DNA from: Candidatus Saccharimonadota bacterium
GTDB taxonomy: Bacteria > Patescibacteriota > Saccharimonadia > Saccharimonadales > Saccharimonadaceae
DNA length: 32,000 nucleotides
NCBI GenBank assembly: GCA_001029695.1
Contig: CP011211.1
Coordinates: forward strand, 300,001 to 332,000
Direction: 5' to 3'
This document shows, piece after piece, positions 1 through 25,744 of the stretch; the first letter of the stretch is position 1; the number at the start of each line of letters is the position of its first letter. The notes below the pieces were generated by a model. It was given only the letters and a program-made list of their open reading frames with translations. It was not told where the DNA came from and made no database searches. The translations under genes were made by a program, and so were the position numbers.

Positions 1-24
1 ACTAACTGTGAATTTAGAAACACC

Positions 25-1251
25 ATGGATCCGGGATGGATCTTTTGCGATCGAGTCGTAGCGACAGACCTCACATCGGTTTTATCAGCAGACAATGGCT
101 TCTCTTTTAGTCGCGGAAACAAGTCTGTCATCGCTGCAAATCTCTACGCTATAAACCCAGCATATTATGGACTATGGGTTGCGGGATTTCTTACTTCGGA
201 TGGTCCCACTAGCCGAGGACCCGAAAATTTCATCATCTCAAATGTGAATATCATTAATGCAGGGATGGGTGGAGTTTTACTCGATAATGCACCTCGTAAC
301 GGCAAGATAACAGGACTTTTTATCAATGGAGTTAGTCGTGGTCCATCTGACGAGCCGGATGTAAACGGTGGAGTTGGTATTCGATTTGGCGGATACCCGA
401 GCGATAACCGCGTGTCGCCAAGTGAATACGCAAGTCGTATTGAGATTAGCGACTTCGTCCTAATAAACTGCGCAAAAGGCGGCGTGCAGCCCACCGGCAC
501 CCAGGATTGTGTCGTACGCAATGGCTTGATCGTCAACCCAGGATCAGAGTTTGACCATACGGGCACGACCACGATAGCCGACACCGATACAACTCAAAAC
601 TTCGGAATCGCAACAGCTGGAATAGCCGCAAGTACTGTCGTACGCTTTACGGCATCTGATATTCGTGTTGTCGATGATCGCTCAACGCCACGCGCCAATT
701 ACCCCGTCTATCTCGAAGGCACTACTGGAGTTGAATATACCGGTATCACCTCTCACGGCACTCGAAGAACCGCAGCAACTGACAGCGTTGCCGTAGAGCG
801 TCGCCTGCTCGGGTCGACAGTCATACAATCCATGCTGATCGTTCCGAGCGGTATTCGTTCAGGTGCCAATGCAGCAACAGGAACAATTCGCGGGTCGGAC
901 GTCAATGGCGCTGCAGGCTCACGTCGCCAAATTGGCCAAGCACTTACTGCAGGGACTGCCAGGTGGGACGTCGCAGCATCTGGTGATGTAGAGTCAGGTG
1001 CTAACGCCGGCTCTAATCTTGTTGTCGCTGGCTACTCCGACGCAGGTGTAAAACTTGCAGACTACCTGGTTATCCGACGTACGGATGGACGAGCCGCATT
1101 TGGAGGCGCTGTTCAATTGAAATCTTACACCACAGCAACACGCCCAACCCCGGCATCGGTTGGTGCGGGCGGGCAAATATATGATTCAACTCTTGGCTAT
1201 GCCATCACGTCCGACGGCACAAATTGGAAGTTTGGACCAACGGTAGTGTAA
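25..1251 (+). CDS. Right-handed beta-helix protein with a phage tail-fibre/tailspike-type C-terminus (possibly 5'-truncated by the window edge)
   Basis: 408-aa ORF; the frame stays open back to nt 1. It has beta-helix-like rungs (NVNIINAGMGGVLLDN, GLFINGVSRG, ISDFVLINCAKGG, VVRNGLIVNPG). The C-terminal SYTTATRPTPASVGAGGQIYDSTLGYAITSDGTNWKF is a motif I recognise from phage/prophage tail-fibre and pectate-lyase-fold tailspike proteins. By eye it is more GC-rich than the genes downstream. Confidence 0.7.
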   Translation: MDPGWIFCDRVVATDLTSVLSADNGFSFSRGNKSVIAANLYAINPAYYGLWVAGFLTSDGPTSRGPENFIISNVNIINAGMGGVLLDNAPRNGKITGLFINGVSRGPSDEPDVNGGVGIRFGGYPSDNRVSPSEYASRIEISDFVLINCAKGGVQPTGTQDCVVRNGLIVNPGSEFDHTGTTTIADTDTTQNFGIATAGIAASTVVRFTASDIRVVDDRSTPRANYPVYLEGTTGVEYTGITSHGTRRTAATDSVAVERRLLGSTVIQSMLIVPSGIRSGANAATGTIRGSDVNGAAGSRRQIGQALTAGTARWDVAASGDVESGANAGSNLVVAGYSDAGVKLADYLVIRRTDGRAAFGGAVQLKSYTTATRPTPASVGAGGQIYDSTLGYAITSDGTNWKFGPTVV

Positions 1252-1291
1252 AAACCTTCCAGTAGCTCTAAAGGAGACACGTACCGATCTC

Positions 1292-2401
1292 TCATACTTT
1301 TTGGGTAGCCCATGTATTCAGCTCGCCAGCAATACGGCCGGTCAATTCGGCGAGTCGCTGCTCCATCTCTTCGAAGTCTAGCTGAAAAACTTGCTCAACC
1401 ATGCCATATAGCGGACGCCCTCGTGTCAGCCCAGTTAGATCAATGCGCGTATCTAGCCCGTAGTGCATCAGTGTATTTCTGAGTGGTTTTTTTGCAGGAT
1501 CAACAATCAAGATAGCGTCTGGATCAGCAAGTAATCCGTCAATATACTGATGAGATTGCAATGTCAAAACCCTCACTTTCTCATCCTTAAGGATACTTAG
1601 ACTGCGCAGTACCTGATAAACGGTAAGATAGCGAAGCTTAAATATAGTTTGCCGAGAGGCTTCGGAGGTATCGAGTCCAAGCAATTGATCGCAAGTGTTT
1701 ATAAGTCCTTGAAAGGTGCTTAGTAGCATATTGATCGTCGGAGTCATCTTACCATTAAACCCATTGCTATACTGGACCACCGAGCGAACATCTTGGTTGG
1801 CAATCCCAGATACATCCATCGCACTGACAAATGATTGAGCCGTCGGATCAGGTACCGCACCTAAATGACGGAAGTACCTTCCGTACTCCTGCGAGATATT
1901 TTTGAGTGTCTCGCCAGTACCGTCGAGAAACAGCTTCTCTGGTGGATGCCCAAGCGTAAAAGTCGTAGCAAACGTTGACGTTATGAGTTGATCTTCATAG
2001 CGCGTGAGGCCAAGATCAGCCTTCCATGCGGACGCAAACGGCAAACGCACAGGATCGATAAACGCTCGGCGGTGAGCAGGAGCAACTTTGTCTGCAAAGA
2101 AATCAAGCTGCCCAGACACGCCACGATGCGTATCCTCGAATAATTTAAGGCTATGCCGTGAACGCTCCAACAAATCAAGCATCCCCGGAGTGAAGCTCAC
2201 ACCTCCTGCAGTCGAAGGATCAAGAATTTTTAGTCGAGCATACGATTCATATGCAAAAAGCGATAGGTAGTTGAACATACAAAAGAGTGCTGAAGGAGCG
2301 AGCGTTTCCGCCTTAACTAAACTACTAATGAATCGACCAACAAAAGCGACGTCAACATCAATGGCATCTCGAACTAATATATCTCGCGTTAGATTGGGCA
2401 T
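1292..2401 (-). CDS. Hypothetical helical protein with a HEPN-like RNxxxH motif
   Basis: 369-aa ORF with no TM segment or signal peptide. The C-terminal third carries LRNTLMHYG (R-x4-H, the RNxxxH form typical of HEPN RNases). GGTGA lies just upstream of the ATG. The 53-nt gap to the upstream same-strand gene suggests an operon. Confidence 0.65.
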   Translation of the reverse strand: MPNLTRDILVRDAIDVDVAFVGRFISSLVKAETLAPSALFCMFNYLSLFAYESYARLKILDPSTAGGVSFTPGMLDLLERSRHSLKLFEDTHRGVSGQLDFFADKVAPAHRRAFIDPVRLPFASAWKADLGLTRYEDQLITSTFATTFTLGHPPEKLFLDGTGETLKNISQEYGRYFRHLGAVPDPTAQSFVSAMDVSGIANQDVRSVVQYSNGFNGKMTPTINMLLSTFQGLINTCDQLLGLDTSEASRQTIFKLRYLTVYQVLRSLSILKDEKVRVLTLQSHQYIDGLLADPDAILIVDPAKKPLRNTLMHYGLDTRIDLTGLTRGRPLYGMVEQVFQLDFEEMEQRLAELTGRIAGELNTWATQKV

Positions 2402-2454
2402 TCATCACCTTTCATAGTCAAACTTTCTAGCACTCGGAGGGCTCGTATCCACCT

Positions 2455-3390
2455 CTAAGATGCTCCTCGTCGCACCTTAGAGCGTCTTACTAAATATGCT
2501 TCATGCAGCCCATCAGCGCGGTCTAGCCTCTCTATTAGATCAGTAAAATGGCCTTCGTACAGAGCGACTGCCTCAGGTATGCATTCGAATACATACTCTT
2601 GAGCCACCAAGACAGCGAGTAACGCCATCGAAAAAAGAGGTTGTGGTCGCTCCGGTATGGGATCTGTATAGGGAAAGAAATTTCCGTCATTTCCGTCAAC
2701 GCGCTCTAGGTGATGTCTTTCAATATCATACCAAGAACCATGAATCATTCCTGACCCTATTCGATAAGCGGAATATGCAGCTGGACCTAAAAGCGCCAAT
2801 CTAGTCTGCGCATTTGGCCAATTAATTTTCTTTCGTGATGGTATCTCGTCCTCTGTAACGCCCGCTGACATAAATGTCTGTTGTACGGATCGCTCCATAC
2901 GCTCTTCTATGTCCCATTTCTCACCCCCGCGCAACGCTATCTGCTCTCGAATGTTCTTCATAAACTCTTTTTCACCAACAAGACTATCGAAAACATATGC
3001 ATCAAACCTCGATACATCAGTTTTATCCTGAAGTAAGTATTTGATAATTGATGCAGAATCAAGAAACTGTCGCGTAAGTTGCATCTGTTGGTCGCCTCCA
3101 TGCTCATCAGCAATTCCGGCAATGACGGCCCGCATTAGCTTCGACATACGTATAAGATGGCCGACCAAAATAGCCTCGTTCCGTGTAAACCCCTCTACAT
3201 GATCTTGATCAAGCGTACCAGCAACCGCCACAAGAAGCTGAGTACTTTCCCTTAGTAGTTCAAACGACACTCTAAGAAATTCATCCTCAGAGGTGGCTCG
3301 CGTTAGAGTATCGAAATCCACCTCATAGCGCCTGATACTATTCAAATCCAGTTCCTCATGCTCACTCATATGAGCTATATTATGAGGCAC
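2455..3390 (-). CDS. Hypothetical helical protein (DUF5677-like by memory) with an R-x6-H motif
   Basis: 311-aa maximal ORF starting at GTG 3390. ATG at 3369 (MSEHEELDL...) is the more likely start because a TTGGCA-17-CATAAT promoter sits at 3407-3379, making the mRNA nearly leaderless. It contains YRIGSGMIHGSWYD (R-x6-H) and has no TM segments. Confidence 0.65.
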   Translation of the reverse strand: MPHNIAHMSEHEELDLNSIRRYEVDFDTLTRATSEDEFLRVSFELLRESTQLLVAVAGTLDQDHVEGFTRNEAILVGHLIRMSKLMRAVIAGIADEHGGDQQMQLTRQFLDSASIIKYLLQDKTDVSRFDAYVFDSLVGEKEFMKNIREQIALRGGEKWDIEERMERSVQQTFMSAGVTEDEIPSRKKINWPNAQTRLALLGPAAYSAYRIGSGMIHGSWYDIERHHLERVDGNDGNFFPYTDPIPERPQPLFSMALLAVLVAQEYVFECIPEAVALYEGHFTDLIERLDRADGLHEAYLVRRSKVRRGAS

Positions 3391-3407
3391 TCAACGCCAT
3401 ATGCCAA
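3379..3407 (-). promoter_or_regulatory. Candidate sigma70-type promoter for the two-gene helical-protein operon
   Basis: On the minus strand: -35 TTGGCA (3407-3402), a 17-nt spacer, then -10 CATAAT (3384-3379). ATG 3369 lies about 9 nt downstream of the -10. Confidence 0.4.
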
Positions 3408-3448
3408 CGCAACCCGAGAACTCTCAAACAAGCCACGTGAGCGAGCGT

Positions 3449-3481
3449 ACACAAAAGGGTCACATCGGTACAGTGTGACCC
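3449..3481 (-). terminator. Rho-independent terminator (minus strand)
   Basis: 8-bp stem GGGTCACA / TGTGACCC (3457-3464 / 3474-3481) with a 9-nt loop. On the minus strand it is followed by TTTTGTGT. Confidence 0.55.
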
Positions 3482-3536
3482 CTGTAAAATATCCCAAATA
3501 TACCGAACGTTCGTTCGACTTGGTGCGATTTTACAA

Positions 3537-3684
3537 CCAAGTCCGAACTGATTTCGAGCAAAATGGCTGAGCCGTGCAGGCTCAGCCCCAACGCCTGCGG
3601 GCCCCACTAGAAAAACCCTTTGCCTATTTTTTCCGCCGGATTTCTTTTTTGAAACTGAAAAGGGTGTTTTCTAGTAGTTCGGAC
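3537..3684 (+). repeat. Structured non-coding repeat, copy A (inverted relative to copy B)
   Basis: Aligns by eye with the reverse complement of 6786-6954. The first 64 nt differ at 3 positions; overall there are about 10 substitutions plus 16-nt and 9-nt indels. It contains the hairpin GGCTGAGCC-GTGCA-GGCTCAGCC, the long-range helix CACTAGAAAA...TTTTCTAGT(A)G, and 9-nt termini GTCCGAACT / AGTTCGGAC that are mutually complementary. Confidence 0.85.
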
Positions 3685-3768
3685 TACTGCAAAAGCAGTA
3701 GAGGCGTCGAGGCTTCGCTCAGGCGGCAAAGCCGCCATATGTCGCTAAAGCGACGTATACGCCGATAC

Positions 3769-4086
3769 CTAGAATCCCAACCAAGCGCCTTCGGTGTTGT
3801 CTGGCATATTCTTATAATCTATAAATTTCTTACAATCTTCCTCTTTTGCGCTACGCTCAAAGATGAAGTAATCACTCTTGATATCAGCAGTTTTGCCGCG
3901 CTGAACGCGCGCCTCACAAATGAGACTTTTCTCGTCTGTCTCTGCCTCTTTGCGTAAATCGCTCGCTTCTTTTTCTTTGTAATGTTCGGAAGTGTAATAA
4001 AATCCCGCATAACTGCCGCCCGCTAGCGCGGCAGTAATGAGCCCGACGAGTAAGTATTTGTTAATTGAAATAACATTTTTCATCAC
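3769..4086 (-). CDS. Small membrane-anchored/secreted hypothetical protein
   Basis: 105-aa ORF with an N-terminal hydrophobic segment (YLLVGLITAALAGG). Its start overlaps the stop of the upstream gene (ATGA at 4083-4086). Last gene of a five-gene cassette. Confidence 0.6.
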   Translation of the reverse strand: MMKNVISINKYLLVGLITAALAGGSYAGFYYTSEHYKEKEASDLRKEAETDEKSLICEARVQRGKTADIKSDYFIFERSAKEEDCKKFIDYKNMPDNTEGAWLGF

Positions 4087-4460
4087 TCATACCTCGGAAT
4101 AGGATTTTCTCGACAATCAAAATTGCCTTTTATACTGTCTTGATAGTATTCATATGGAGATGAGGTAGTTTTGAAACCACCCCATGCACTACTTGGCATA
4201 CCGCAATAGTGATAGTATGTGCCGCTCAACTTTATGACCATATACTCGTTGCTGCTGTCATACCACGCACCTTTAACAGTCGAGTCTGATTTATCGAGTG
4301 GCTCAAAATTACTTGCTGAAATATTCACTTTGTCATCACGGTATTTTACCGTTACATAACCAGAACTAGGCGACAGGAAAAGAAAATACAGAATCACACC
4401 GCCAATAAGCACTGCAAGTCCGATATACACCCATGAATAGTTTTCTTTGTGCTGTGTCAT
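4083..4460 (-). CDS. Membrane-anchored KTSC-domain protein
   Basis: 125-aa ORF with an N-terminal TM segment (WVYIGLAVLIGGVILYFLFL). The C-terminal GAWYDSSNEYMVIKLSGTYYHYCGMPSSAWGGFKTTSSPYEYYQDSIKGNF matches the KTSC-domain pattern from memory. ATGA overlaps occur at both ends. Confidence 0.65.
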   Translation of the reverse strand: MTQHKENYSWVYIGLAVLIGGVILYFLFLSPSSGYVTVKYRDDKVNISASNFEPLDKSDSTVKGAWYDSSNEYMVIKLSGTYYHYCGMPSSAWGGFKTTSSPYEYYQDSIKGNFDCRENPIPRYE

Positions 4461-5335
4461 TTCGTGAGAGTCCTTTTCACACGTTTAGATATAAGGAAAT
4501 ACGGCACCCAAATTAACACTCCTATGACACTCCTGCCTACGTCGCCACTATACTTACTCATCATTGCCTGTATCTCGGCATTTCCGGCAAGACCAGATGA
4601 ACTAAAAATATCTGACGCTGCCGCATAATCTATCATTCCGTATGCCGCTGCGAATATCAGCGTCGCAATTGCGAATGGCTTTGCTAATTTACGCTTACGG
4701 AATAACAGCATAAGCATAGTAATGAGAAGTACCACATATATGATAACAGCTGTATTCTCGAATGCTGTTAGGGCTTGTAGAGTATCACCAAGTCCATGCT
4801 CATATTCGTTGAGAGTTGATACGTCTGACGACGACATGAATCCGTCGGAGAAAAACCTAAATACCGTAATAAGTAACGCCAAAATCTGCCCTACAATGAA
4901 CAGTGCCAACCAGCCCTCGAGTCCAATCTTTTGGTCACGCCGTTGCTCTTTGGTTATCTTGTCGGGATTAGTTGTTTTTGAAAGATAAGAATCACCAAGT
5001 GATAATTGTTTTTTGAGCTTTTCTGCTTTGGCATACGGTTCGCCACGCATCTCTATCGCCTGATTGATAAAATCGAGTGCATCATCGTCATGACCATTAA
5101 AGTAATGGACTAACGCCTGTAACTCATAGAGTTTATATCTTGCTGTGCCAATTTCTTCACTGAATTGATATTTTTCAGCTAAAGAATCGAGTCGTTTTTG
5201 GACTAGAGCCAGTAATGCCTTGTCCTTCTCGCCAGAGGTTGCATCTTTGAGATTCGCCTCAACAACTTTAATTTGGTCTATGTACTTTTGACGATTTTCC
5301 GAATGAGGAAGTTGCATTATTCTAAATCTCCCCAT
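4457..5335 (-). CDS. Helical-repeat (TPR-like) N-domain fused to a DUF2569-like membrane domain
   Basis: 292-aa ORF. The alternative ATG at 5317 forms a TAATG stop/start overlap with the upstream gene. The N-terminal half is soluble and helical. The C-terminal half has about 4 TM helices beginning GLEGWLALFIVGQILALLITVF, reminiscent of DUF2569. Confidence 0.65.
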   Translation of the reverse strand: MGRFRIMQLPHSENRQKYIDQIKVVEANLKDATSGEKDKALLALVQKRLDSLAEKYQFSEEIGTARYKLYELQALVHYFNGHDDDALDFINQAIEMRGEPYAKAEKLKKQLSLGDSYLSKTTNPDKITKEQRRDQKIGLEGWLALFIVGQILALLITVFRFFSDGFMSSSDVSTLNEYEHGLGDTLQALTAFENTAVIIYVVLLITMLMLLFRKRKLAKPFAIATLIFAAAYGMIDYAAASDIFSSSGLAGNAEIQAMMSKYSGDVGRSVIGVLIWVPYFLISKRVKRTLTK

Positions 5336-5985
5336 GTTCGTTTAGTATCGTCTGTCTGCTCAATATCTATCACGTCGTTATGTCGGGTTGCGTGCTTCTC
5401 GGCACGAGTAAGCGCGTACGTGAATAGCAACTGTATCACCAGAGATATCACAAGAATCACGACAAGTACGGGAAATGCCTGACCAAGCGTCATGCCAAAG
5501 ATGCCGATACAAATCATCAGCGCGACGATACCAAGCGCAAGAAAGAATGTTGTCATACCTGTTGATGTGTTGTCTTGTTCTTTGGAAGCCATGTATTGCC
5601 ATGGTGCAAGCACTACGGCGTAAAGCCATAATAGGCTTGCCCAAAGTGGTGCAGATTGAGAGCTCAGGGCAATATCTGCAATGTAATATGTCGATACGGC
5701 GATGAGACCATAAGTGTATGCGATACCCAGTAAGCCAAAGATGAAAAACAGCACATATTTGCGCTTTTCTGCAAAAGCCGCCGCAGGCGCTGCAAAAAGC
5801 AGACTAGGCATGAGGAGTAAACCAATAATCATCGCGCCAAACATCATGTAGAGTAAGCCGCCTATGAATAATGACCACTCGCCAGCAACCATGAGCCAAA
5901 TGCCACCGACAATACCACCCAGAACATTGAGCAAAAGAATAGGTACACTGAGGGTTGTAGTAAGTCCGCTAAAAAACCGTTCCAT
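5317..5985 (-). CDS. Polytopic membrane protein, unknown function
   Basis: 222-aa ORF with about 6 hydrophobic helices and a charged C-terminal tail. Tightly packed in the cassette. Confidence 0.65.
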   Translation of the reverse strand: MERFFSGLTTTLSVPILLLNVLGGIVGGIWLMVAGEWSLFIGGLLYMMFGAMIIGLLLMPSLLFAAPAAAFAEKRKYVLFFIFGLLGIAYTYGLIAVSTYYIADIALSSQSAPLWASLLWLYAVVLAPWQYMASKEQDNTSTGMTTFFLALGIVALMICIGIFGMTLGQAFPVLVVILVISLVIQLLFTYALTRAEKHATRHNDVIDIEQTDDTKRTWGDLE

Positions 5986-5991
5986 CGTATT

Positions 5992-6531
5992 CTATGATCC
6001 CAAACAGTACTCTGAACCGTTTTCTAGCAGTACCGTAATTGCATAATTCCGAGCAGACGACACACCGTCGCAATTCGTACCAGTCTTGAACACGGCTGTC
6101 TCGGCTGTCGGCTCGCCCCCACCAGAAACAGACGTAACTTGTGCAAGACTAGAAGTTGAAAGGTCGCTTGCGCTCGGTAGTTGTCCACGATTTTCTGTCA
6201 TGAATGATGTAACATCTGTCGTGAGAACACTAACATCATTTTTGCGTGCTGTGTCGCGCTGGCTTTGCTGCAAGCTAGGAAACGCCGCCTGCACAACCCA
6301 GACGATGAGCAAACTCAAAACAACGCCGACACTACCCGTTACAATTCCTGCAATCGCTTTTTTGCGCCCTCGTTTCTTAACCGATGCTGCTCCAAAAATG
6401 ATAGCCAGAGCGCCAAGCACAATACCGATATACCAAACAAGGCATGTGATAATTGCTAAAATGCCAAGAACTAGCGACGCAATCGCAAGACCCTGACTCT
6501 CTGTTTGTTCTGTTTTGTGTGATTCTGACAT
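5992..6531 (-). CDS. DUF4190-type double-TM anchor fused to a pilin-like ectodomain
   Basis: 179-aa ORF. The N-terminus GLAIASLVLGILAII...GAASVKKRGRKKAIAGIVTG is typical of DUF4190. After the second TM segment, QQSQRDTARKNDVSVLTTDVTSFMTENRGQLP resembles the alpha1-C region of type IV pilin/pseudopilin domains, but there is no class III signal peptide. GGAGG lies 7 nt upstream of the ATG. Confidence 0.7.
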   Translation of the reverse strand: MSESHKTEQTESQGLAIASLVLGILAIITCLVWYIGIVLGALAIIFGAASVKKRGRKKAIAGIVTGSVGVVLSLLIVWVVQAAFPSLQQSQRDTARKNDVSVLTTDVTSFMTENRGQLPSASDLSTSSLAQVTSVSGGGEPTAETAVFKTGTNCDGVSSARNYAITVLLENGSEYCLGS

Positions 6532-6741
6532 AATACCGCCTCCTCTGGAGTATCTTTGTTAGTGGTTTTTGCGAACCAAAAAGCCCGCCACGAGCGGTAG
6601 TCTTGCGACTACCCACAAACCTTTCGGAATGCGACCACAAAGAGAAGTACTCATGACGAGCTGTTTCTCTTTGTGGATTCTTCAACCATGCCGTACAAAG
6701 TGCGGTTTAGGTCTAGGCGAATATCGCTTGTCATGATTGTA
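6532..6741 (-). promoter_or_regulatory. Weak candidate promoter plus ~200-nt structured 5' leader of the cassette
   Basis: Minus-strand -10 TACAAT (6741-6736) with a weak -35 TAGCAA. The leader contains a 12-bp hairpin (CCACAAAGAGAA...TTCTCTTTGTGG) and a second TTTGTGG that could pair with the same 5' arm instead. It also has GNRA-capped hairpins (CC-GAAA-GG, GTAGTC-GCAA-GACTAC) and a short GC hairpin followed by CTTTTTGG. Confidence 0.35.
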
Positions 6742-6785
6742 CTATTTACACCGTATTTTTGCTAGATGATAGATACAAATAACCG

Positions 6786-6954
6786 CCACCACCAGAAAAC
6801 ACCTTTTTCAGTTTCAAAAAAGAAATTCGGCGGGGAGAAATAAAAAAATAGGCAAAGAGTTTTTCTGGTGGGGTGAGCGGGCGCGTGAGCCCGCAGGCGT
6901 TGGGGCTGAGCATGCATGGCTCAGCCATTTCGCTCGAAATCAGTTCGGACTTGG
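6786..6954 (-). repeat. Structured non-coding repeat, copy B (directly follows tRNA-Ala; the shared sequence starts in its CCA)
   Basis: The reverse complement aligns with 3537-3684. It carries the same hairpin (GGCTGAGC...GCTCAGCC) and the helix CCACCAGAAAA...TTTTCTGGTGG. A 16-nt insertion creates an extra hairpin, GCGGGC-TCACGC-GCCCGC. Confidence 0.85.
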
Positions 6955-7028
6955 TGGAGCATACCGGATTCGAACCGGTCGCCTCTTCGCTGCCAGCGAA
7001 GCGCTCTAGCCAAATGAGCTAATGCCCC
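6952..7028 (-). tRNA. tRNA-Ala (anticodon GGC), CCA encoded
   Basis: The reverse complement GGGGCATTAGCTCATTTGGCTAGAGCGCTTCGCTGGCAGCGAAGAGGCGACCGGTTCGAATCCGGTATGCTCCACCA folds as a cloverleaf. The anticodon loop is CTGGCAG, and the G3:U70 Ala identity pair is present. Confidence 0.95.
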
Positions 7029-7052
7029 ATAAAAGTACGTTCATCATTGTAA

Positions 7053-7082
7053 CAAGAAAAACACCCGCAACCAAGCGGATGT
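7053..7082 (-). terminator. Rho-independent terminator after the HdeD-family gene (hairpin usable on both strands)
   Basis: Minus strand: ACATCCGC-TTGGTT-GCGGGTGT followed by TTTTTCTTG. A possible tRNA-Ala promoter (TTGGTT-17-TACAAT) overlaps it. Confidence 0.6.
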
Positions 7083-7106
7083 TTTTCGTAGACGTATAGA
7101 GATCGT

Positions 7107-7712
7107 TTATTTCTTAGCAAATCGCTTTACAGATTCAACACCCTCTACAAACTCGTCTTTTGCTTCATTGAAGACTGATCGAACTTTAAACGCATACGAT
7201 AGGCTGATCGATCCAGCCAAAATAGCGTAGAGTCCAAGTACCCATACAAATGCAATACCGCCGGTCACTGGATAGCGCCAGATGATTATTCCCGCAATCA
7301 CCCCAAGTACACCACCGATAATCCAAAGAAGTCGATTCTCGGTCTTCTCGACGAAGAATGCCGCTACGAAGAGATCAAACACACCACGTGCAAGTACTAG
7401 CGCACCGACGATCACGATAAAGATGTCGAGAGCAGTCTGGGGATTGCGGAGCAAATAGACGCTCACACCAAGCATTACGACTCCTACGAGCAGCGAAAAC
7501 CACCATGACGAGTTTTTGCCAATATCACTGAATCCATGAACAAGCTCGAGTACTCCGAGCACGAGTACATAAATCGCGAAGATATATAGAAGTGTTACTA
7601 ATGTTAGGCCTGGCAAGAACAAGGCGACGATACCAAAAATAATCGTTGCGATACCCTGTAATACAAAAAGCCACCAAAGACCGCTTACATATTCTTTTAT
7701 ACTGCTACTCAT
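7107..7712 (-). CDS. HdeD-family (DUF308) membrane protein
   Basis: 201-aa ORF with about 6 TM helices. WWLFVLQGIATIIFGIVALFLPGLTLVTL and the repeated helical-hairpin pattern are typical of HdeD/DUF308. A TTAACA-17-TACAAT promoter and a GGAGG site lie upstream. Confidence 0.8.
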   Translation of the reverse strand: MSSSIKEYVSGLWWLFVLQGIATIIFGIVALFLPGLTLVTLLYIFAIYVLVLGVLELVHGFSDIGKNSSWWFSLLVGVVMLGVSVYLLRNPQTALDIFIVIVGALVLARGVFDLFVAAFFVEKTENRLLWIIGGVLGVIAGIIIWRYPVTGGIAFVWVLGLYAILAGSISLSYAFKVRSVFNEAKDEFVEGVESVKRFAKK

Positions 7713-7780
7713 TGTAGATACCTCCTACATGTTAGTTGTGGCTTCATTGTACGCCTACTATCAGTTTTTGTTAAGCATAC

Positions 7781-7905
7781 ATAAAACCACCCCCTGTAAA
7801 AGGAGTGGCTATTCAGCTGCTGCGCGCCCACCCAAGGGGCACGGTGTTTTTGTTTTGATTTGTTTATTTTAAACGCTACAGGTACCCCTAGTAGCGCACC
7901 AGCTT
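7781..7905 (-). ncRNA. Candidate small RNA (~125 nt) with its own promoter and terminator
   Basis: Minus strand: -35 TTGAAT (7940-7935), a 17-nt spacer, then extended -10 TG-C-ATAAT (7917-7912). The transcript would contain the hairpin CGCTAC...GTAGCG, an A/C-rich linker, and a long-range pairing AGCTG..GCGC / GCGC..CAGCT. It ends in the terminator CCACTCC-TTTTACAG-GGGGTGG + TTTTAT (7787-7808). There is no plausible ORF. Confidence 0.35.
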
Positions 7906-8097
7906 ATCGACATTATGCACCCAAATGCTGCAAAATTCAAGCTTATGCTAGTATTGTTTTACAAAATATGATTAAATAACAGTGTTCAGAAGCATACGCG
8001 AAGCGAGTGTTTCCTCTCACGAGGGGCTCTTTCTTGAAAAAGTTCGCCGCATGGTCGATCTGACGATACAAGTAACAAGAAAAGAGTTCCAAATTTT

Positions 8098-8439
8098 ATG
8101 GCACAGCAAAATCTTTTCATCGGTAGCCTTGCTTACGCAACTAACGATGATAGTTTGAAAGCTCATTTTGAGCAAATTGGCCCTGTTTCGAGCGCTCGCG
8201 TGATCACTGATCGCGATAGCGGCCGTAGCAAAGGCTTTGGTTTCGTCGAATTCGAAAACGATGCAGACAACCAAAAAGCTGTTGATCAACTCGACGGTAA
8301 AGAGCTTGACGGCCGCACTATCAGTGTCGGTCTAGCTCGTCCCCGCGAAGAGCGTCCAAAGCGCGACTTCAACGGCGGCGACCGTGGTGGTGATCGTGGT
8401 GGCAACGGTGGCGGTTCATTCCGTCAGCGTAGCTGGTAA
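8098..8439 (+). CDS. RRM-type RNA-binding protein with a Gly/Arg-rich tail
   Basis: 113 aa with RNP2 LFIGSL and RNP1 KGFGFVEF. The C-terminal tail is GGDRGGDRGGNGGGSFRQRSW. Confidence 0.9.
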   Translation: MAQQNLFIGSLAYATNDDSLKAHFEQIGPVSSARVITDRDSGRSKGFGFVEFENDADNQKAVDQLDGKELDGRTISVGLARPREERPKRDFNGGDRGGDRGGNGGGSFRQRSW

Positions 8440-8457
8440 TCGATCACTCGATTCAGC

Positions 8458-8494
8458 AAAATACCTCGTCCTTCCGGGCGAGGTATTTTATTTG
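8458..8494 (+). terminator. Rho-independent terminator (probably bidirectional)
   Basis: AAAATACCTCG-loop-CGAGGTATTTT followed by ATTT. It lies between convergent genes. Confidence 0.7.
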
Positions 8495-8511
8495 GTAAAT
8501 CTTGCATAAGT

Positions 8512-8991
8512 CTAAACTTGTTGAGGCGCTGCGGTTTGATTCTCACGCTGCGACGGAGCTGAAGGTGATGATCTGTCAGGCACAACGGGAGCCCACTCGC
8601 CATCGTCCTCTTGAACGCTCTGCTCTATACATGACTGAATATTCCAGGAGGTTGGTTGACTACAATCACTATTTATGACCATAGCGATTAAAACAAATCC
8701 ATAAACAAAAAGCGTCAACACTGCAGATACACTACTGATAATAATTCCCGCGAGTGCAAGCCCACTCGGCGCGCCTGAGCGCTTCGTTTGTATGCGACCT
8801 ATGAGACTTAGTATAAAGCCAACAATCGCAGGAATCCCGATAAGAAACGCGTTCGTGAGCAATGCAACAATCGAGACGCTAAATCCAGCTACTGAAAGTC
8901 CAGCACCTTGTGGCTGGCTCCCTAGCTGCGCCCTTACTGGATCGGATGTTGCGTCGGTGTTCATCTTCTCATAATAGAAGACAGTAAGCAT
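8512..8991 (-). CDS. DUF4190-domain membrane protein
   Basis: 159-aa ORF; the internal ATG at MNTDATSD is a possible true start. Two TM hairpins (GFSVSIVALLTNAFLIGIPAIVGFILSLIG, GLALAGIIISSVSAVLTLFVYGF) are followed by a Pro/Ser-rich tail. Confidence 0.7.
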   Translation of the reverse strand: MLTVFYYEKMNTDATSDPVRAQLGSQPQGAGLSVAGFSVSIVALLTNAFLIGIPAIVGFILSLIGRIQTKRSGAPSGLALAGIIISSVSAVLTLFVYGFVLIAMVINSDCSQPTSWNIQSCIEQSVQEDDGEWAPVVPDRSSPSAPSQRENQTAAPQQV

Positions 8992-9020
8992 AAATACAAC
9001 AATACGAGATAGCGAGGAGA

Positions 9021-10832
9021 CTAAGCCAGCTGACTTTCAAACATATGATAATACGCACCACGAAGCGATACGAGCTGTTGATGGGTACCTTGCTCTACAA
9101 GATACCCATCTTTTATCATAAATATCGTATCCGCCTTCTCGATAGTTGTCAGGCGATGACTAATAGTAATCACTGTCCGTTCTTTATCCGCAAACAAATG
9201 CTTAAATATTCGCGACTCAGCAAGCGCATCGATTGCGCTTGTCGGCTCATCTAAAATGATAATCGGGCTGTCTCGATAAAAGTTTCGTGCAAGCGCAAGC
9301 CGCTGCCATTGACCACCAGATAAATCCGCACCCTTCGTTCCATCCTCGTGCTCCATCCAGTTGATCACATAACTGTCTACGCCTCGGGGGAGTTTTTCGA
9401 GAAACGTCCTTGCTTCAGCACGATCAAGTGCAGCCTCAAATCGTATTGAGTCGAGCGGGCCACTTACATCGCCAAAGTAGATATTATCCTTTGCAGAAGC
9501 AAATCCGTATGACAAATAATCTTGCTGTAGAACACCCAATTGGGCGTGCCACGAGTCAATCGCAATTTTCTTCATACTCTTGCCGTCAAGATACATAGCA
9601 CCGGACGTAGGTAAATAGAGTCCGGTAAGGACTTTGATGAGCGTTGTCTTGCCTGCTCCATTTTCGCCAACAATCGCCACATGCGCACCTTTTTTAATCG
9701 TTAGCGATATGTCATGAAGTGTAGGCTTCTGTGACTGCGGGTACTGAAACGACACATTACGAAGTTCGATTGCTTCAGGCGCTTTCACTAGTATAGAATT
9801 GCCGCCCTTGCCGGCGGGTAGTCGCATAAACTCCTGATAGTCAAAAAGATTTGCGAGGTCTTCATCTATGTAGCTAAGTTGAGACACAAAGCTCCCAGCG
9901 CCACTCAACGCTCTCGATACGACTTGCTGAACATACAGAAATTGCCCGATAGGCTGAGCCCTATCAATGATCTGCAGTACAGTAAAAATCAGTGCACCCA
10001 CCTCTGCTGCAGTTTCGAGTGCATCCGCAAATAATTTCTTACCTATGTATCGCCGCTCAAACTCAATGCGCTCTTTTTCGTCTTTATCACGTAGTGCCAT
10101 ACGAAGGTCGAGCAAATATCGAACAATACCGTAAAGCCTTAACTCGCCTATATATTTCGGCTGAAGCATATTCCATTCGATCATACTTTTTGCTCGCCTC
10201 GTCTCTACGTGCTCCTTGCGATGGTTAATCTGCGCCCTCGACAGACGAAGTTGTATATAAATACCCGGAATAACCGCTGCAAGCAAAATAAGCCCCAGCC
10301 ACCAGCTCACAAATACCATCGCAATAATCCCCGCAAGCATGGCAATAAATTGCGTAAGAACATTTGATAATCGATCAAACACCCAGGCAAACGACCTCGC
10401 AAAATCAGTTGCTCGATCATATAGATCGGCCGTGTTCTTGTCGTCGTACCGCCAAAAATCAAGTTGTAAAAAATGCTCATACATGCGATCACTCATCGCA
10501 GCTTCCACTTTATAGCGCATAAGCTGTTGGACGTACTGATTAATGCTATTCCAAATAGTCCAGCCCACTCCGAGAAGCGCTGTAACGACAACGTACAGGA
10601 TAGCTTGGTCGCCAGCTGCATGATTGCCTGCATAAGCCTCAGCAAGAGCTGTTGTCGTCTTAGCAGCAAAAAATGTCGTCACAATAGGCAGTGTCGCAGA
10701 TATAACTGCGCTCACAAGCTGCAACACTACTGCAAGTGGCGCTGCCCTATACGTCAGTACTGCAACTTGCCATACGGCAAGTGCGTACTGTCTTCCCGTT
10801 AGTTTTCTTGGCTTTTTCACCATATTACTCAA
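9021..10832 (-). CDS. ABC exporter, fused permease/ATPase (MsbA/type I exporter family)
   Basis: 603 aa. An N-terminal 6-TM domain is followed by Walker A GENGAGKTT, signature LSGGQWQR and Walker B IIILDEPTS. Confidence 0.9.
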   Translation of the reverse strand: MSNMVKKPRKLTGRQYALAVWQVAVLTYRAAPLAVVLQLVSAVISATLPIVTTFFAAKTTTALAEAYAGNHAAGDQAILYVVVTALLGVGWTIWNSINQYVQQLMRYKVEAAMSDRMYEHFLQLDFWRYDDKNTADLYDRATDFARSFAWVFDRLSNVLTQFIAMLAGIIAMVFVSWWLGLILLAAVIPGIYIQLRLSRAQINHRKEHVETRRAKSMIEWNMLQPKYIGELRLYGIVRYLLDLRMALRDKDEKERIEFERRYIGKKLFADALETAAEVGALIFTVLQIIDRAQPIGQFLYVQQVVSRALSGAGSFVSQLSYIDEDLANLFDYQEFMRLPAGKGGNSILVKAPEAIELRNVSFQYPQSQKPTLHDISLTIKKGAHVAIVGENGAGKTTLIKVLTGLYLPTSGAMYLDGKSMKKIAIDSWHAQLGVLQQDYLSYGFASAKDNIYFGDVSGPLDSIRFEAALDRAEARTFLEKLPRGVDSYVINWMEHEDGTKGADLSGGQWQRLALARNFYRDSPIIILDEPTSAIDALAESRIFKHLFADKERTVITISHRLTTIEKADTIFMIKDGYLVEQGTHQQLVSLRGAYYHMFESQLA

Positions 10833-10876
10833 CTACTGTATCATACGCCAGGATACTAAAAACAAGCTGCGCCACT

Positions 10877-11458
10877 CTAACTATCGGCATTTAATAGCTC
10901 TGCAACAGAACGCGAAACAAGATCTTCAATCGGCCGACATGCAGCTAGTCGCTGCCGCACCTGAGTGGAGCTAACATCCAGAGGATCTACATTTAGCCGT
11001 ACGGCACGTCTTCCTAGTTGCAAGGCAGGATAACCTGGACGTTCAACAATAGCCATCGACAGGTTTTCAAGCATCCAAGCCCCATCCTCCCATTGCGGCA
11101 TCGTCTGTAAAGAGTCAGACCCAAACACCCATGTAAACTGACGATCAGGATATGCTTCACCTAGTTGCCGTACTGTATCAATTGTCTCCGTAGGCTTAAT
11201 CCTATCCAGCTCCTGTTCTTCGACGCGCAGCAAGGTTTCACCCGTCGTGACTATATCGAGACATAAGGCAGCACATAATTGTAGCCTCCGCTCTCGATTA
11301 GCATCTATGCGCTTGTCGCGACGCTCACCACTAGGAAGAAGCCAAACATCAGCGCCGCTCTGCCCAGCCCTATCGGCACACGCCTGTAGAATCGTTTGGT
11401 GTGCGCGTGTAGGTGGGTTAAACGCCCCTCCGTAAATGATTGTCTCTTTTTGTTTCAT
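10877..11458 (-). CDS. nadD: Nicotinate/nicotinamide mononucleotide adenylyltransferase
   Basis: 193 aa with GGAFNPPTRAH (nucleotidyltransferase HxGH-type motif) and the C-terminal VSSTQVRQ (ISSTxxR motif). AAGGAGGGTG lies upstream. Confidence 0.85.
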   Translation of the reverse strand: MKQKETIIYGGAFNPPTRAHQTILQACADRAGQSGADVWLLPSGERRDKRIDANRERRLQLCAALCLDIVTTGETLLRVEEQELDRIKPTETIDTVRQLGEAYPDRQFTWVFGSDSLQTMPQWEDGAWMLENLSMAIVERPGYPALQLGRRAVRLNVDPLDVSSTQVRQRLAACRPIEDLVSRSVAELLNADS

Positions 11459-11473
11459 ACACCCTCCTTATAT

Positions 11474-11493
11474 AAGTGTACATATAACACTAT
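11474..11493. promoter_or_regulatory. Candidate NrtR operator, site 1 (nadD / nrtR divergent region)
   Basis: AAGTGTACATATAACACTAT is a 5-7-5 palindrome (AGTGT-n7-ACACT). Its reverse complement ATAGTGTTATATGTACACTT nearly equals site 2 at 13220-13239. Confidence 0.5.
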
Positions 11494-11594
11494 CTATATA
11501 TATTACTTAATATATCAAACATAGATAGATAATCAAGCTCCTTCTCGTTGGGACCTCGACATACTGTCAATCAACAGAGAAAACAAGTATACTT

Positions 11595-12278: not shown

Positions 12279-12293
12279 AGCGCCACCATCCCC

Positions 12294-13115: not shown

Positions 13116-13180
13116 GGTACAAAAAACACCTTTCTTTATATCAAAAGTATATGACAATCACACATACAAGTCAATTAGTG

Positions 13181-13239
13181 TTGACACGACAATAACTCTT
13201 CGTTTATCATAAATATAGTTAGTGTTATACATACACTTA
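13181..13239 (+). promoter_or_regulatory. pncA-pncB promoter with candidate NrtR operator, site 2
   Basis: TTGACA (13181-13186), an 18-nt spacer, then TATCAT (13205-13210). It is followed by TAGTGTTATACATACACTTA (13220-13239), of the form AGTGT-n7-ACACT, over the expected transcription start. Confidence 0.5.
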
Positions 13240-13259
13240 CAGAAAAGGAGTACGCCACT

Positions 13260-25657: not shown

Positions 25658-25744
25658 TGGTGCGCAGAGCGGGACTTGAACCCGCACGACCGTGAGGCCA
25701 AGAGATTTTAAGTCTCTCGTGTCTACCAATTCCACCATCCGCGC
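25658..25744 (-). tRNA. tRNA-Leu (anticodon UAA), CCA encoded
   Basis: The reverse complement is GCGCGGATGGTGGAATTGGTAGACACGAGAGACTTAAAATCTCTTGGCCTCACGGTCGTGCGGGTTCAAGTCCCGCTCTGCGCACCA. It has a long variable arm and the anticodon loop CTTAAAA. Confidence 0.95.

Follow-up and report, generated by a model that had tools for sequence, protein, structure and literature searches.

The inverted pair of repeats that brackets a five-gene cassette beside tRNA-Ala in the window (the whole 32,000-nucleotide stretch of Saccharibacteria DNA analyzed here) probably represents the two boundary repeats of a cargo slot in islands that carry a large serine recombinase (LSR) and sit at tRNA CCA ends, with the window copy being a recombinase-less remnant (probability roughly 0.66). 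Across the family, we observe a recurrent architecture, precise junction sequences, cassettes in two orientations, and mosaic cargo. The link between repeat and tRNA CCA is an attachment-site signature of large serine recombinase islands, a point that the first-pass annotation missed.

The inverted pair at tRNA-Ala

An inverted-repeat search of the window returned three collinear blocks shared by copies A and B (Table 1), which are inverted homologs of ~170–230 nt each. Exact words of 21 and 23 nt occur in the window only at A and B (0 expected from shuffles), and a profile built from 17 family members had no match in the 32-kb window other than A and B. Together with pairwise alignment, these results bear out the homology first proposed, including 3 differences within the first 64 nt and length differences of 16 and 9 nt. 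The limits given for copy A (3537 and 3684) were too short: it runs from the TTGGTG at 3520 to ~3748, and past 3684 it continues with sequence homologous to the family's long form. The supposed 16- and 9-nt insertions in B are instead deletions in A, since the segments are present in all other family members; they include a GCGGGCGC/GCGCCCGC hairpin kept in those members. Of the compensatory changes proposed between the copies, the C-G to T-A exchange in the long helix is real (alignment columns 115/196), but the inner CCCTTT/AAAGGG helix is not clean, with one G-U and one C-A mismatch in copy B by pairwise alignment.

Table 1. Features of the island and its surroundings (window coordinates)
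Feature	Position	Strand	Description and basis
Hairpin GGGTCACA/TGTGACCC then TTTTGTGT	3450..3483	-	Candidate native terminator of tRNA-Ala; sequence and empty-site reading
Direct repeat CACCAAGTC, right copy	3517..3525	-	attR-like junction: repeat end ...AATCGCACCA, then AGTCGAACG of the flank
Copy A	3520..~3748	+	Long boundary repeat at the distal end, with hairpins P5, P6, and P7 added to the common core; shortened by two internal deletions compared with other family members
P1 hairpin of copy A, outward reading	3565..3587	-	GGCTGAGCC..GGCTCAGCC then ATTTTG; terminator-like (terminator scan), facing out of the cargo
Cargo	3769..6531	-	Five small, mostly membrane proteins: DUF4190, 222 aa, DUF2569, KTSC, 105 aa; ORFs and Pfam
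LOOT RNA (RF03000)	6596..6713	-	Cassette leader; Rfam, 75.5 bits
Inner extension of short copy	6714..6785	-	Common to the window and L059; CGGTGTAAATAGTACAATCA; leads into LOOT (alignment)
Copy B	6786..6956	-	Proximal short boundary repeat; begins ~16 nt into the full repeat and has no long-form 3' extension
Direct repeat CACCAAGTC, left copy	6948..6956	-	9 bp; tRNA 3' end plus 4 nt; attL-like junction of tRNA and copy B
tRNA-Ala(GGC)	6952..7028	-	Integration target; ARAGORN; Rfam tRNA, 61.9 bits; strand exchange directly 3' of CCA
Inverted-repeat block 1	3536-3602/6889-6955		96% (repeat search)
Inverted-repeat block 2	3592-3632/6843-6883		85% (repeat search)
Inverted-repeat block 3	3633-3678/6788-6833		91% (repeat search)

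As first noted, copy B begins in the ACCA of the tRNA called by ARAGORN, whose end stands in place of the first ~16 nt of the full repeat. This start would follow from the outer ~25 nt of the repeat, which end in TGGTG, being a recombinase half-site. A 9-bp direct repeat, CACCAAGTC, overlooked at first, brackets the island. At its left copy, the crossover position is identical to that of attL junctions at five other tRNAs; its right junction matches the sequence 3' of tRNA-Ala in two assemblies (L004 and L007). There, tRNA-Ala runs into AGTCGAACGAA, the far flank of the window island, over only 11 nt past the tRNA, and the L004 scaffold joins the tRNA end to DUF5677 across one 100-N link. We read these as signs of an empty integration site, which would consist of the tRNA plus AGTCGAACGAACG leading to DUF5677. 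The same tRNA-Ala CCA is occupied by an ICE in other strains. Because of the empty-site reading, the hairpin at 3450..3483 is likely the native tRNA-Ala terminator, now parted from its tRNA by the island.

The remnant would thus be ordered tRNA-Ala, copy B, LOOT, five genes, copy A, CACCAAGTC, and native terminator, once the LSR gene had been lost together with the opening 16 nt of the proximal repeat. This deletion apparently had CCACCAAGTC at the end of the tRNA and CAACCAAGTC within the repeat as its endpoints; we only infer it, since tblastn found neither an LSR nor an LSR fragment in the window, in agreement with the first-pass annotation. Alternatively, the cassette could have moved in trans instead of losing an LSR.

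The five-gene operon also occurs in other Saccharibacteria, both with and without repeats. Its nearest relative (L076-79, 90% aa) comprises LOOT, the operon, and DUF5677 without repeats; therefore, the operon need not always travel with them. LOOT lies inside the island directly after copy B, and it follows the short repeat in J_CALMYZ too, but it is a separate 118-nt RNA outside the repeat proper that accompanies the operon even where repeats are absent (L076 and L080). LOOT also precedes the homologous operon in L083 and, in L024, a different gene. In the window, a terminator-like hairpin (6597-6583; terminator scan) ends LOOT just 5' of the first cassette gene. The inner extension of the short copy holds a weak -10-like TACAAT, a putative promoter at which a simple promoter scan made no call.

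A family of paired repeats beside serine recombinases

The unit occurs once or twice per genome in ~35 Saccharibacteria contigs and is not a high-copy repeat. An exact 20-mer search recovered 29 genome contigs (22 titled Saccharibacteria, Saccharimonas, or Saccharimonadales, one Nomurabacteria, and one unclassified MAG) and 30 metagenome contigs. Collection by an exact 20-mer inflates apparent conservation and hides diverged members; L083 was missed this way and reached only via protein. At least 18 contigs have two copies, always in the order plus then minus, with 5' ends outward and 1.7–8 kb apart. Each pair combines one short and one long form, as do B (short) and A (long) in the window. 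The cargo between them is unrelated among members (methylases, a CdiA_C-like protein, a LeuRS cluster, and a 1484-aa protein), and its genes run convergently (J_CALMYZ), divergently (J_JAPUDQ), or in one direction relative to the repeats.

An LSR gene lies immediately outside one repeat copy in 10 loci, and tblastn places an LSR beside one repeat in 12 loci. These neighboring proteins of 519–562 aa have Resolvase, Recombinase, and Zn_ribbon_recom domains, and the gene continues at its 3' end into the 3' end of a tRNA, in antisense. In 10/10 complete LSR loci, the last 104–139 nt of the gene recur as an inverted duplicate that abuts the repeat, and eight of these duplicates are 100% identical. 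The gene itself ends ...FNFLPSLV-RGAGL-stop into antisense tRNA-Leu, and the duplicate ends ...FNFLPSLV-SLYDKARTYFEENG-stop into the repeat. attL junctions fall directly after CCA at tRNA-Phe, Leu, Glu, Gln, and Gly, and distal repeats end in ...CACCA followed by flank. Fusions of a tRNA to a short repeat (L021/L042, L039, L069, and L016) start exactly at CCA and end at varying repeat depth. The outermost ~25 nt of the repeat are element-specific and end in TGGTG, the complement of tRNA CACCA; they may constitute the LSR half-site. The remaining ~160–230 nt form a highly conserved, hairpin-rich module.

In a full island, the tRNA is followed by an LSR gene that reads back into the end of the tRNA, then by an inverted copy of the last ~105–139 nt of that gene, the proximal repeat, cargo, the distal repeat, and chromosomal flank; the LSR would integrate such an island directly 3' of the tRNA CCA. 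Recombination between the two repeat copies would flip the cargo, given that they are inverted; if both recombined with those of another element, the cargo would be replaced in either orientation. The route may be homologous recombination or the LSR itself. Canonical LSRs recombine attP with attB only, and 200-nt arms are unnecessary; we know of no explanation in known LSR systems for an inverted attP-like copy.

Segment inversion, a secondary proposal of the first-pass annotation, is supported at the level of the family, as the cassette lies one way round in some related contigs and the other way round in others. L025 and L046 have a flank in common and a cargo end that is 99.6% identical, yet the flank adjoins one end of the cargo in L025 and the other end in L046; an assembly chimera formed across the repeat could also produce this arrangement. 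Beside the LSR, L073 and L070 have the long form of the repeat, and J_CALMYZ and others have the short one; beside the tRNA, the same operon has the short form in the window and the long form in L083. Among related contigs, one cargo can follow different backbones, and homology ends at the repeats; in L019, a J_CALMYZ-type LSR backbone (94%) switches at the repeat to J_DISN-type cargo (88%). The repeats probably both mark and mediate cargo inversion and exchange.

Repeat structure and competing explanations

The unit is non-coding, conserved at the nucleic-acid level, and strongly structured, as first described, with z-scores of -8.6 for the sense and -7.3 for the antisense strand. RNAalifold predicts a multi-helix junction with the fold-back layout A-B-B'-C-C'-D-D'-A', and 93% of cells are paired. 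Double changes occur at 12 pairs versus 5.6 in shuffles (1/500), and the covariation score is 0.123 versus 0.084 in shuffles (0/500) and at most 0.045 with partners slid. Covariation thus supports several hairpins: P3, P5, P6, and P7 show compensatory changes, and the long-range helices P2 and P4 show almost none. Helix mismatches comprise 30 G-U and 36 A-C, counts we take as equal, so neither strand acts as the transcribed one; since the local hairpins covary without strand bias, they fit an RNA and a DNA structure equally well. In short copies, P5 is missing and P2 is reduced to its 5' strand, with the remainder kept. Repeat conservation and hairpin covariation exceed what a homology arm needs, so the repeat likely has a further function. 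The P1 hairpin with its T-run, found in outward reading in most subtypes (family alignment), probably also insulates neighbors from cargo transcription.

A rival reading is a structured RNA of ~185–250 nt, with the unit as its gene or leader, in which a four-way junction P2(P3, P4, P5) and hairpins P1, P6, and P7 act with or on the recombinase; we consider this unlikely. The RNA might be a 3' UTR of the LSR mRNA in an excised circle, an antisense LSR regulator via the duplicated 3' end, or an RNA cofactor, and the inverted pair would mean that it is needed at both ends. The strong sense fold, the predicted multi-helix junction, and the compensatory changes agree with an RNA, as does conservation far above that of the neighboring LSR (48–73% protein identity), and the LSR frame would enter the repeat in a hypothetical excised circle. 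Against an RNA stand the nearly equal antisense fold, the balanced mismatches, the scant covariation in P2 and P4, the truncated short copies, and cargo orientations that imply no consistent transcription through the unit. An Rfam search gave no match, in line with the first-pass annotation, which could place the unit in no RNA family.

Folded single-stranded or cruciform DNA sites, comparable to integron attC or hairpin telomeres, would let a recombinase acting in trans capture and release cassettes, making a serine-recombinase "integron" at tRNA ends. Equal folding of both strands, unbiased mismatches, and the fold-back layout suit this idea, as do a recombinase gene outside the cassette beside an intact attP-like site, variable cargo with homology breaks at the repeats, and recombinase-less cassettes at tRNA ends (the window and L083). 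However, arrays of several cassettes are never seen, homologous recombination between 185-nt repeats suffices for inversion and exchange without new chemistry, and, to our knowledge, no serine recombinase is known to act on folded single strands. We regard this explanation as improbable.

The first-pass annotation preferred RNase III-type processing stalks, in which transcription from tRNA-Ala reads through the cassette and the ~150-nt ends of the transcript pair to form a panhandle that is cleaved. tRNA-Ala, copy B, LOOT, and the five genes do lie on one strand, with copy A antisense at the far end, so a single transcript would have complementary ends. Elsewhere, the cargo runs inward, outward, or one way relative to the repeats, so co-transcription of both copies is not a family-wide feature; most pairs do not adjoin a tRNA promoter, and copy A and LOOT each have a terminator-like hairpin, that of copy A facing outward. 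This reading is therefore very improbable. A MITE- or REP-like selfish repeat, two copies of which landed by chance on either side of an operon, is hardly tenable either: copy A has complementary 9-nt termini (GTCCGAACT and AGTTCGGAC) and the unit is non-coding and AT/GC-patchy, but genomes hold one or two copies rather than tens, every pair is convergent and combines a short form with a long one, unit ends lack target-site duplications, and the unit is constantly associated with LSR genes and the ends of tRNAs.

Comparison with known systems

The boundary-repeat islands resemble known LSR elements (phiC31/Bxb1 prophages, Tn4451/Tn5397, and SCCmec) in their Resolvase, Recombinase, and zinc-ribbon recombinase encoded at one element end, in site-specific insertion with few shared junction bases, and in ends that are imperfect inverted repeats from two attP half-sites. 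They differ in that known attP sites are ~50 bp, whereas the inverted ends in Saccharibacteria are 185–290 nt, hairpin-rich, and highly conserved. One of these ends sits inside the island with an inverted duplicate of the recombinase 3' end. The islands target the very CCA terminus of many different tRNAs, and the window copy lacks a recombinase.

The invertible segments of Cin, Gin, and Pin (phage P1 C, Mu G, and e14 P) likewise have a recombinase just outside a 2–8 kb segment between inverted repeats, likely crossovers at the outer repeat ends, and both orientations in nature. There, small invertases assisted by an enhancer and Fis switch between two alternative tail-fibre reading frames; in Saccharibacteria, the putative flip catalyst is an LSR, the cargo can be of any kind and can be replaced, and inversion splits no gene. 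A hypothetical excised circle would, like the yeast 2-micron plasmid (Flp/FRT in 599-bp inverted repeats), contain two long inverted repeats (LSR 3' end plus boundary repeat, ~320 nt) with a recombination site mid-repeat, splitting it into recombinase and cargo segments. This analogy is structural only, as the island is integrative rather than a plasmid and its recombinase is a serine rather than a tyrosine enzyme.

Integron attC cassettes and recombinase-mediated cassette exchange share with these islands a promoter-poor, variable cargo between conserved structured repeats, a recombinase encoded outside the cassette, and cassettes common to different backbones. Unlike integrons, the islands have no IntI tyrosine recombinase, attC R/L-box consensus, or arrays, and each cassette is flanked by two inverted repeats rather than carrying one attC.

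An inverted repeat pair at the tRNA-Ala gene

The first-pass annotation had described an inverted pair of repeats around a five-gene cassette, and a repeat search of the window recovered it as three collinear inverted blocks with 85-96% complementarity. The two copies, A and B, share exact words of 21 and 23 nt that occur nowhere else in the window, and shuffled sequences gave none. Pairwise alignment reproduced the 3 differences in the first 64 nt as well as the length differences of 16 and 9 nt; family alignments assign the latter to deletions in A, not to insertions in B as had been proposed. A search of the 32-kb window with a profile of 17 relatives found these two copies only. Because the profile match to A extends to 3748, this copy is longer than its earlier end at 3684 implied; the start of copy B in the ACCA end of tRNA-Ala(GGC) was borne out, since the tRNA gene occupies that stretch. 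Coordinates are collected in the table.

Along the minus strand, a DUF308 gene is followed by tRNA-Ala, copy B (sense), a LOOT RNA, five small genes (DUF4190, 222 aa, DUF2569, KTSC, and 105 aa), copy A (antisense), a hairpin with a T-run terminator, and a DUF5677 gene. The called form of the last gene is 304 aa; an exact-protein contig search with the 311-aa GTG-start form found none. A short direct repeat (crossover core), the 9-bp CACCAAGTC, is present at both ends of the island, with one copy in the target gene. The tRNA-side junction reads tRNA...GCTC + CACCAAGTC + CGAACTG and the far-side junction ...TTGTAAAATCG + CACCAAGTC + GAACGAACG. Elsewhere in the window, and unrelated to the repeat pair, are an RRM-domain RNA-binding protein and a set of NAD salvage genes (NadD-like CTP_transf_like, NrtR-type NUDIX regulator, isochorismatase/PncA-like, NAPRTase, and NUDIX).

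The 23-mer GCTCAGCCCCAACGCCTGCGGGC was found in two IMG/VR contigs, in one of which homology to copy A extends beyond 3684, with compensatory changes in the hairpins. A 20-mer scan returned 29 genome contigs and 30 metagenome contigs. By title, 22 of the genome contigs are Saccharibacteria, Saccharimonas, or Saccharimonadales and one is Nomurabacteria; another is an unclassified MAG ("uncultured bacterium"), and the remaining five (high-GC proteobacterial or planctomycete) look like chance matches. Relatives were gathered through one exact 20-mer or one protein only, and the family sequences are mostly metagenome assemblies. With adjacent blocks joined, at least 18 contigs carry two copies, spaced 1.7-8 kb apart and ordered plus then minus without exception, so that their 5' ends face outward; a diverged pair detected by profile search (L083-85) has the same arrangement.

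Coordinates of features in the window and on contigs of relatives
Feature	Contig	Coordinates	Strand	Remark
Copy A, profile match	window	3527-3748	plus	long form
Copy B, profile match	window	6956-6786	minus	short form
Inverted blocks	window	3536-3678 and 6788-6955		repeat search
Direct repeat CACCAAGTC	window	6948-6956 and 3517-3525		both island ends
tRNA-Ala(GGC)	window	6952-7028	minus	
LOOT RNA (RF03000)	window	6713-6596	minus	75.5 bits
RRM-domain protein	window	8098-8439		
NAD salvage region	window / L001	11595-18000 / 1-6836		
tRNA-Leu(taa)	window	25658-25744	minus	downstream to 25600
LOOT	L024	963-1080		
LOOT	L076	5330-5447		
LOOT	L080	5745-5863		
LOOT	L083	6050-6167		
ICE-like element	L002	10691-20606		also L003, L005, L006
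ICE-like element, far end	L012	1-2415		
LeuRS cargo	JAPUDQ010000038.1 (L018+L026)	5660-13630		
Toxin-domain/helicase cargo	CALMYZ010000048.1 (L023+L024)	3887-8854		
Tyrosine-integrase end, tRNA-Gly(gcc), LSR remnant and truncated repeat	L016 (IMGVR_UViG_3300045988_142396)	2524-2900		viral-flagged
Second LSR at tRNA-Gly(gcc)	CAURII010000001.1 (L027; L031)	626-2353; 2030-2160		
Small inverted fragment pair	DDFI01000004.1 (L038)	113-383, 1713-1787		75-nt repeat fragments

Serine recombinases at tRNA CCA ends

Just outside one copy, relatives encode a protein of 519-562 aa with Resolvase, Recombinase, and Zn_ribbon_recom domains, that is, a large serine recombinase (LSR), which tblastn placed next to the repeat in 12 loci. 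The gene is directed away from the repeat pair, and its 3' end enters the antisense 3' end of a tRNA (Phe, Leu(taa), Glu, Gln, or Gly). The window contains no LSR at E<1e-10 (tblastn, two family LSRs as queries). Copies A and B can be aligned from end to end with the long and short repeats found in LSR-bearing members. In B the first 16 nt of the core are missing, and the tRNA end is joined at ACCAAGTCC. Crossover by the CCA, as in the window, is also seen at five other tRNAs.

Wherever the LSR is complete (ten of ten loci), an inverted duplicate of its last 104-139 nt lies between the LSR start and the repeat; in eight cases the identity to the gene end is 100%. The duplicate continues directly into the repeat (...FNFLPSLV followed by SLYDKARTYFEENG and a stop), and the LSR gene itself continues into the tRNA (...FNFLPSLV followed by RGAGL and a stop; TGGTG joined to CGGGG). 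Judged from these junctions, the join of tRNA and LSR end corresponds to attL and that of distal repeat end and flank to attR; the sequence where the internal duplicate meets the repeat is what an intact attP would have, inverted. Strand exchange maps to CACCA(A), at the CCA end of the tRNA. At its outer edge, the repeat has ~25 nt that are element-specific, and their opposite strand resembles a tRNA T-loop and acceptor; we regard them as a putative recombinase half-site.

Members without a recombinase are fused to tRNAs always exactly at the CCA, at variable depth in the repeat (L021/L042 at tRNA-Gly, L039 and L069 at Gln-like ends, and L016 with a remnant of the LSR 3' duplicate). In the window, CCACCAAGTC at the tRNA end matches CAACCAAGTC within the repeat. 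We infer that these fusions, the window included, are deletion derivatives from which the LSR was lost.

Several loci show further complexity. In the viral-flagged contig L016, the C terminus of a tyrosine integrase is followed by tRNA-Gly(gcc), the LSR remnant, and a repeat truncated after its second hairpin; adjacent sites there seem to serve two types of integrase. In CAURII010000001.1, a second, different LSR (554 aa) adjoins tRNA-Gly(gcc), and tandem or nested islands at a single tRNA are suggested because the ~50 nt after this tRNA recur (~90%) beyond the distal repeat of the neighbouring island. DDFI01000004.1 has a small inverted pair of repeat fragments which, together with a 90.6% copy of the LSR 3' end, lies ~3.5-5 kb from the main island and probably represents an older element's remains.

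Contigs encoding the identical DUF308 protein show three states at tRNA-Ala. First, the arrangement is that of the window (L001/L011). Second, tRNA-Ala is followed by AGTCGAACGAA, the sequence beyond copy A; of the two contigs in this state, L007 then stops and L004 is scaffolded via 100 N to DUF5677. An unoccupied site would look like this, as judged by 11 nt and one scaffold link. Third, in sibling strains, an ICE-like element sits exactly after the CCA, ahead of copy B, with the junctions GCTCCACCA to AAAGGTG and TTCCACCA to AGTCCGAAC. These three states mark the 3' end of tRNA-Ala as an integration hot spot. Besides a 581-aa large serine recombinase, whose identity to the repeat-associated LSRs is only 28%, the ICE-like element encodes an M78 peptidase/HTH pair, ArdA, an N6_N4 methylase, a Replic_Relax relaxase, a TrwB-like coupling protein, and SduA_C. 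Another tRNA of the window, tRNA-Leu(taa), has its own terminator and a LemA gene directly after it; this site, which an LSR island occupies in DDFI01000004.1, is unoccupied in the window.

Our preferred reading, to which we give a probability of about two in three, is that copies A and B are the distal and proximal boundary repeats of a cargo slot in an LSR island at the tRNA-Ala CCA whose recombinase has been lost. The repeats would carry the recombinase half-site at their outer ends, which would explain both the start in the CCA and the direct repeat, and their inverted arrangement would allow the cargo to be flipped and replaced.

Exchange and inversion of cargo

All copies have a core of ~185 nt, from TGG... 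to ...TTTTCTGGTGG, followed by one of two inner extensions. In long copies the extension is a set of three hairpins plus the 3' strand of a long-range helix. In short copies it is another conserved stretch, which comprises a GTCGC/GCGAC hairpin, a palindrome, and, facing the cargo, a -10-like GATATAAT; in the window, L059, and J_CALMYZ this short extension runs into LOOT.

The idea that the bracketed segment can invert was supported for the family, with both orientations in four comparisons (L025/L046, L073/J_CALMYZ, L070/J_DISN, and window/L083). L025 and L046 have their outer flank in common, and one cargo end matches at 99.6% identity; in L025 the flank is joined via the repeat to the opposite cargo end from that in L046. 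The pair is best read as an inversion isomer; a chimeric path through the repeat is less likely, and three independent comparisons agree with inversion. The LSR-adjacent copy is long in L073 and L070 and short in J_CALMYZ, J_CAURII, L030, L059, and L075, the LSR genes of L073 and J_CALMYZ being 92.7% identical. Homologous outer flanks meet the short copy in L070 and the long one in J_DISN, and the window operon has a short tRNA-adjacent copy in the window and a long one in L083. Within the window species, a single cassette orientation was present in all five examined assemblies that span it (L001, L011-L014). Cargo is also exchanged: L019 combines a J_CALMYZ-type tRNA-Phe/LSR backbone (94%) with J_DISN-type cargo (88%), and the switch in homology falls inside the repeat. 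As far as sequence alone can tell, LSR catalysis of inversion is indistinguishable from homologous recombination. The identity profile of L025 and L046 was tried as a discriminator and set aside, since the way the comparison is built places the switch at the inner edge of the common repeat.

Members differ in their cargo, which includes N6/N4 and C5 methylases, AAA proteins, a LeuRS cluster, and a CdiA_C-like protein together with a helicase-like protein of 1484 aa. Slot contents are often defence or conflict genes. Some methylases are accompanied by AAA/OLD-like proteins; in CALMYZ010000048.1, a 138-aa CdiA_C-like toxin-domain protein faces the 1484-aa helicase/nuclease-like protein. The cluster in JAPUDQ010000038.1, bounded by two long repeats, comprises a full-length LeuRS, a class II aminoacyl-tRNA-synthetase-like protein, an Ldh_2 dehydrogenase, a cupin, and two unknown proteins, recurs in L038+L034 and L049/L050, and resembles a small cluster for biosynthesis that includes a resistant copy of the synthetase.

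The window operon and LOOT also occur without any repeats (L076-79, at 90% aa identity, and L080-82). LOOT lies directly upstream of the 222-aa/DUF2569/KTSC operon in four distant Saccharibacteria contexts and of the unrelated 1484-aa gene in J_CALMYZ, and its 3' end is a terminator-like hairpin immediately ahead of the first ribosome-binding site. Given its recurrent position and hairpin, LOOT resembles a leader acting in cis more than an independent sRNA. Dozens of homologues of the cassette DUF2569 protein lie on contigs of 3.2-3.9 kb, about the cassette length between repeats, which suggests that assemblies routinely break at the repeats.

Folding of the repeat and comparison with integrons

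A full-length copy folds much better than its shuffles on both strands (z = -8.6 and -7.3). RNAalifold, applied to 17 non-redundant long copies, gave a junction closed by CCCCAACGCCT/AGGCGTTGGGG that contains a GC hairpin, a long CCAGAAA...TTTCTGG helix, and a third hairpin, with two further hairpins after it. Under a hand-set structure, 93% of cells are paired. Double changes occur in 12 pairs, versus 5.6 +/- 1.7 in shuffles (1 of 500 reached this number). The long-range helices, in one of which the first-pass annotation had read a compensatory change, are nearly invariant, partly because the 20-mer used for fishing covers one of their strands. The covariation score was 0.123, versus 0.084 in shuffles (0/500) and at most 0.045 with slid partners, and covariation is confined to four short hairpins. 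As had been supposed, the unit matches no known RNA family: at the gathering threshold, Rfam returned LOOT and tRNAs only in the window and 19 further loci, and a search with a full-length copy at E<=1 produced no relevant match. In the outward direction, a T-run follows the first hairpin in most subtypes, and in the window this hairpin was called terminator-like.

Several other assignments were considered and set aside. A coding role fails since the ATG at AAAATGGCTGAGCC is not conserved and the T-run indels are not multiples of three. The reverse strand, with its NCCA end and GGTTCGA motif, had no ARAGORN or Rfam match as a tRNA or tmRNA, and we read these features as mimicry of a tRNA half-site, not a gene. 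A covarying 5' hairpin, TTGGT...ACCAA, is out of register between subtypes, and the stretch was treated as a variable half-site. Finally, a long-range helix TCGAACC/GGTTCGA, which would be the counterpart of the complementary 9-nt termini noted earlier, occurs in some subtypes only and would cross helix P2.

Less probably than in the preferred reading, the repeat may act as a structured RNA or may serve a folded-DNA cassette system. Mismatches in the helices are about equally G-U (30) and A-C (36), with no asymmetry to pick a transcribed strand, so neither strand can be named as RNA, and DNA-level palindromes fit the structure data equally well. A bolder proposal, which we consider unlikely, is that the repeats are the working sites of a new cassette system and not passive homology arms: an LSR docked at a tRNA CCA end would keep an intact, inverted attP-like site by its own promoter, and folded repeats of ~200 nt (DNA hairpins or RNA) would be used to flip, capture, and exchange cassettes of defence and accessory genes. 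The panhandle or RNase III processing stalk favoured initially, in which one transcript would carry both complementary arms, is disfavoured by comparison among members, as the orientation of cargo genes relative to the repeats varies and both arms on one transcript are not a shared feature. With one or two copies per genome contig set and two by profile search in the window, the unit is not dispersed like a MITE, and no target-site duplications were seen at its ends.

Saccharibacteria and other CPR bacteria have tiny genomes, and how they acquire and reshuffle accessory genes is, to our knowledge, poorly understood. The family described here shows one defined way of doing so. Its serine-recombinase islands sit at the CCA ends of at least seven different tRNAs, and each has a slot for cargo that is framed by long conserved inverted repeats. 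Modules for restriction-modification, toxins, tRNA synthetases, and membrane proteins appear to be exchanged and inverted in this slot. For annotation, it accounts for a recurrent unannotated structured element, for assembly breaks at ~3-4 kb around such cassettes, and for a tRNA gene that seemingly runs into conserved non-coding sequence. We know of no precedent among serine integrases for a perfect inverted duplicate of the recombinase 3' end, or for a repeat more conserved than the recombinase itself. Serine integrases are widely used in genome engineering, and these two features could point to a new control or direction of LSRs. Our literature search on LOOT, on serine recombinases of Saccharibacteria/Patescibacteria, and on serine-integrase cassette exchange at tRNAs did not find this architecture described.

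The integron offers a comparison. Integron cassettes are served by an IntI tyrosine integrase, and each has a single attC with R/L boxes; neither is found here. In this repeat family, by contrast, the recombinases are of the serine type, the boundaries are TGGTG/CACCA, and each cassette has two inverted repeats. Should the repeats prove to be working sites, ultra-small episymbiotic bacteria would have, in this family, an equivalent of the integron that is based on a serine recombinase.
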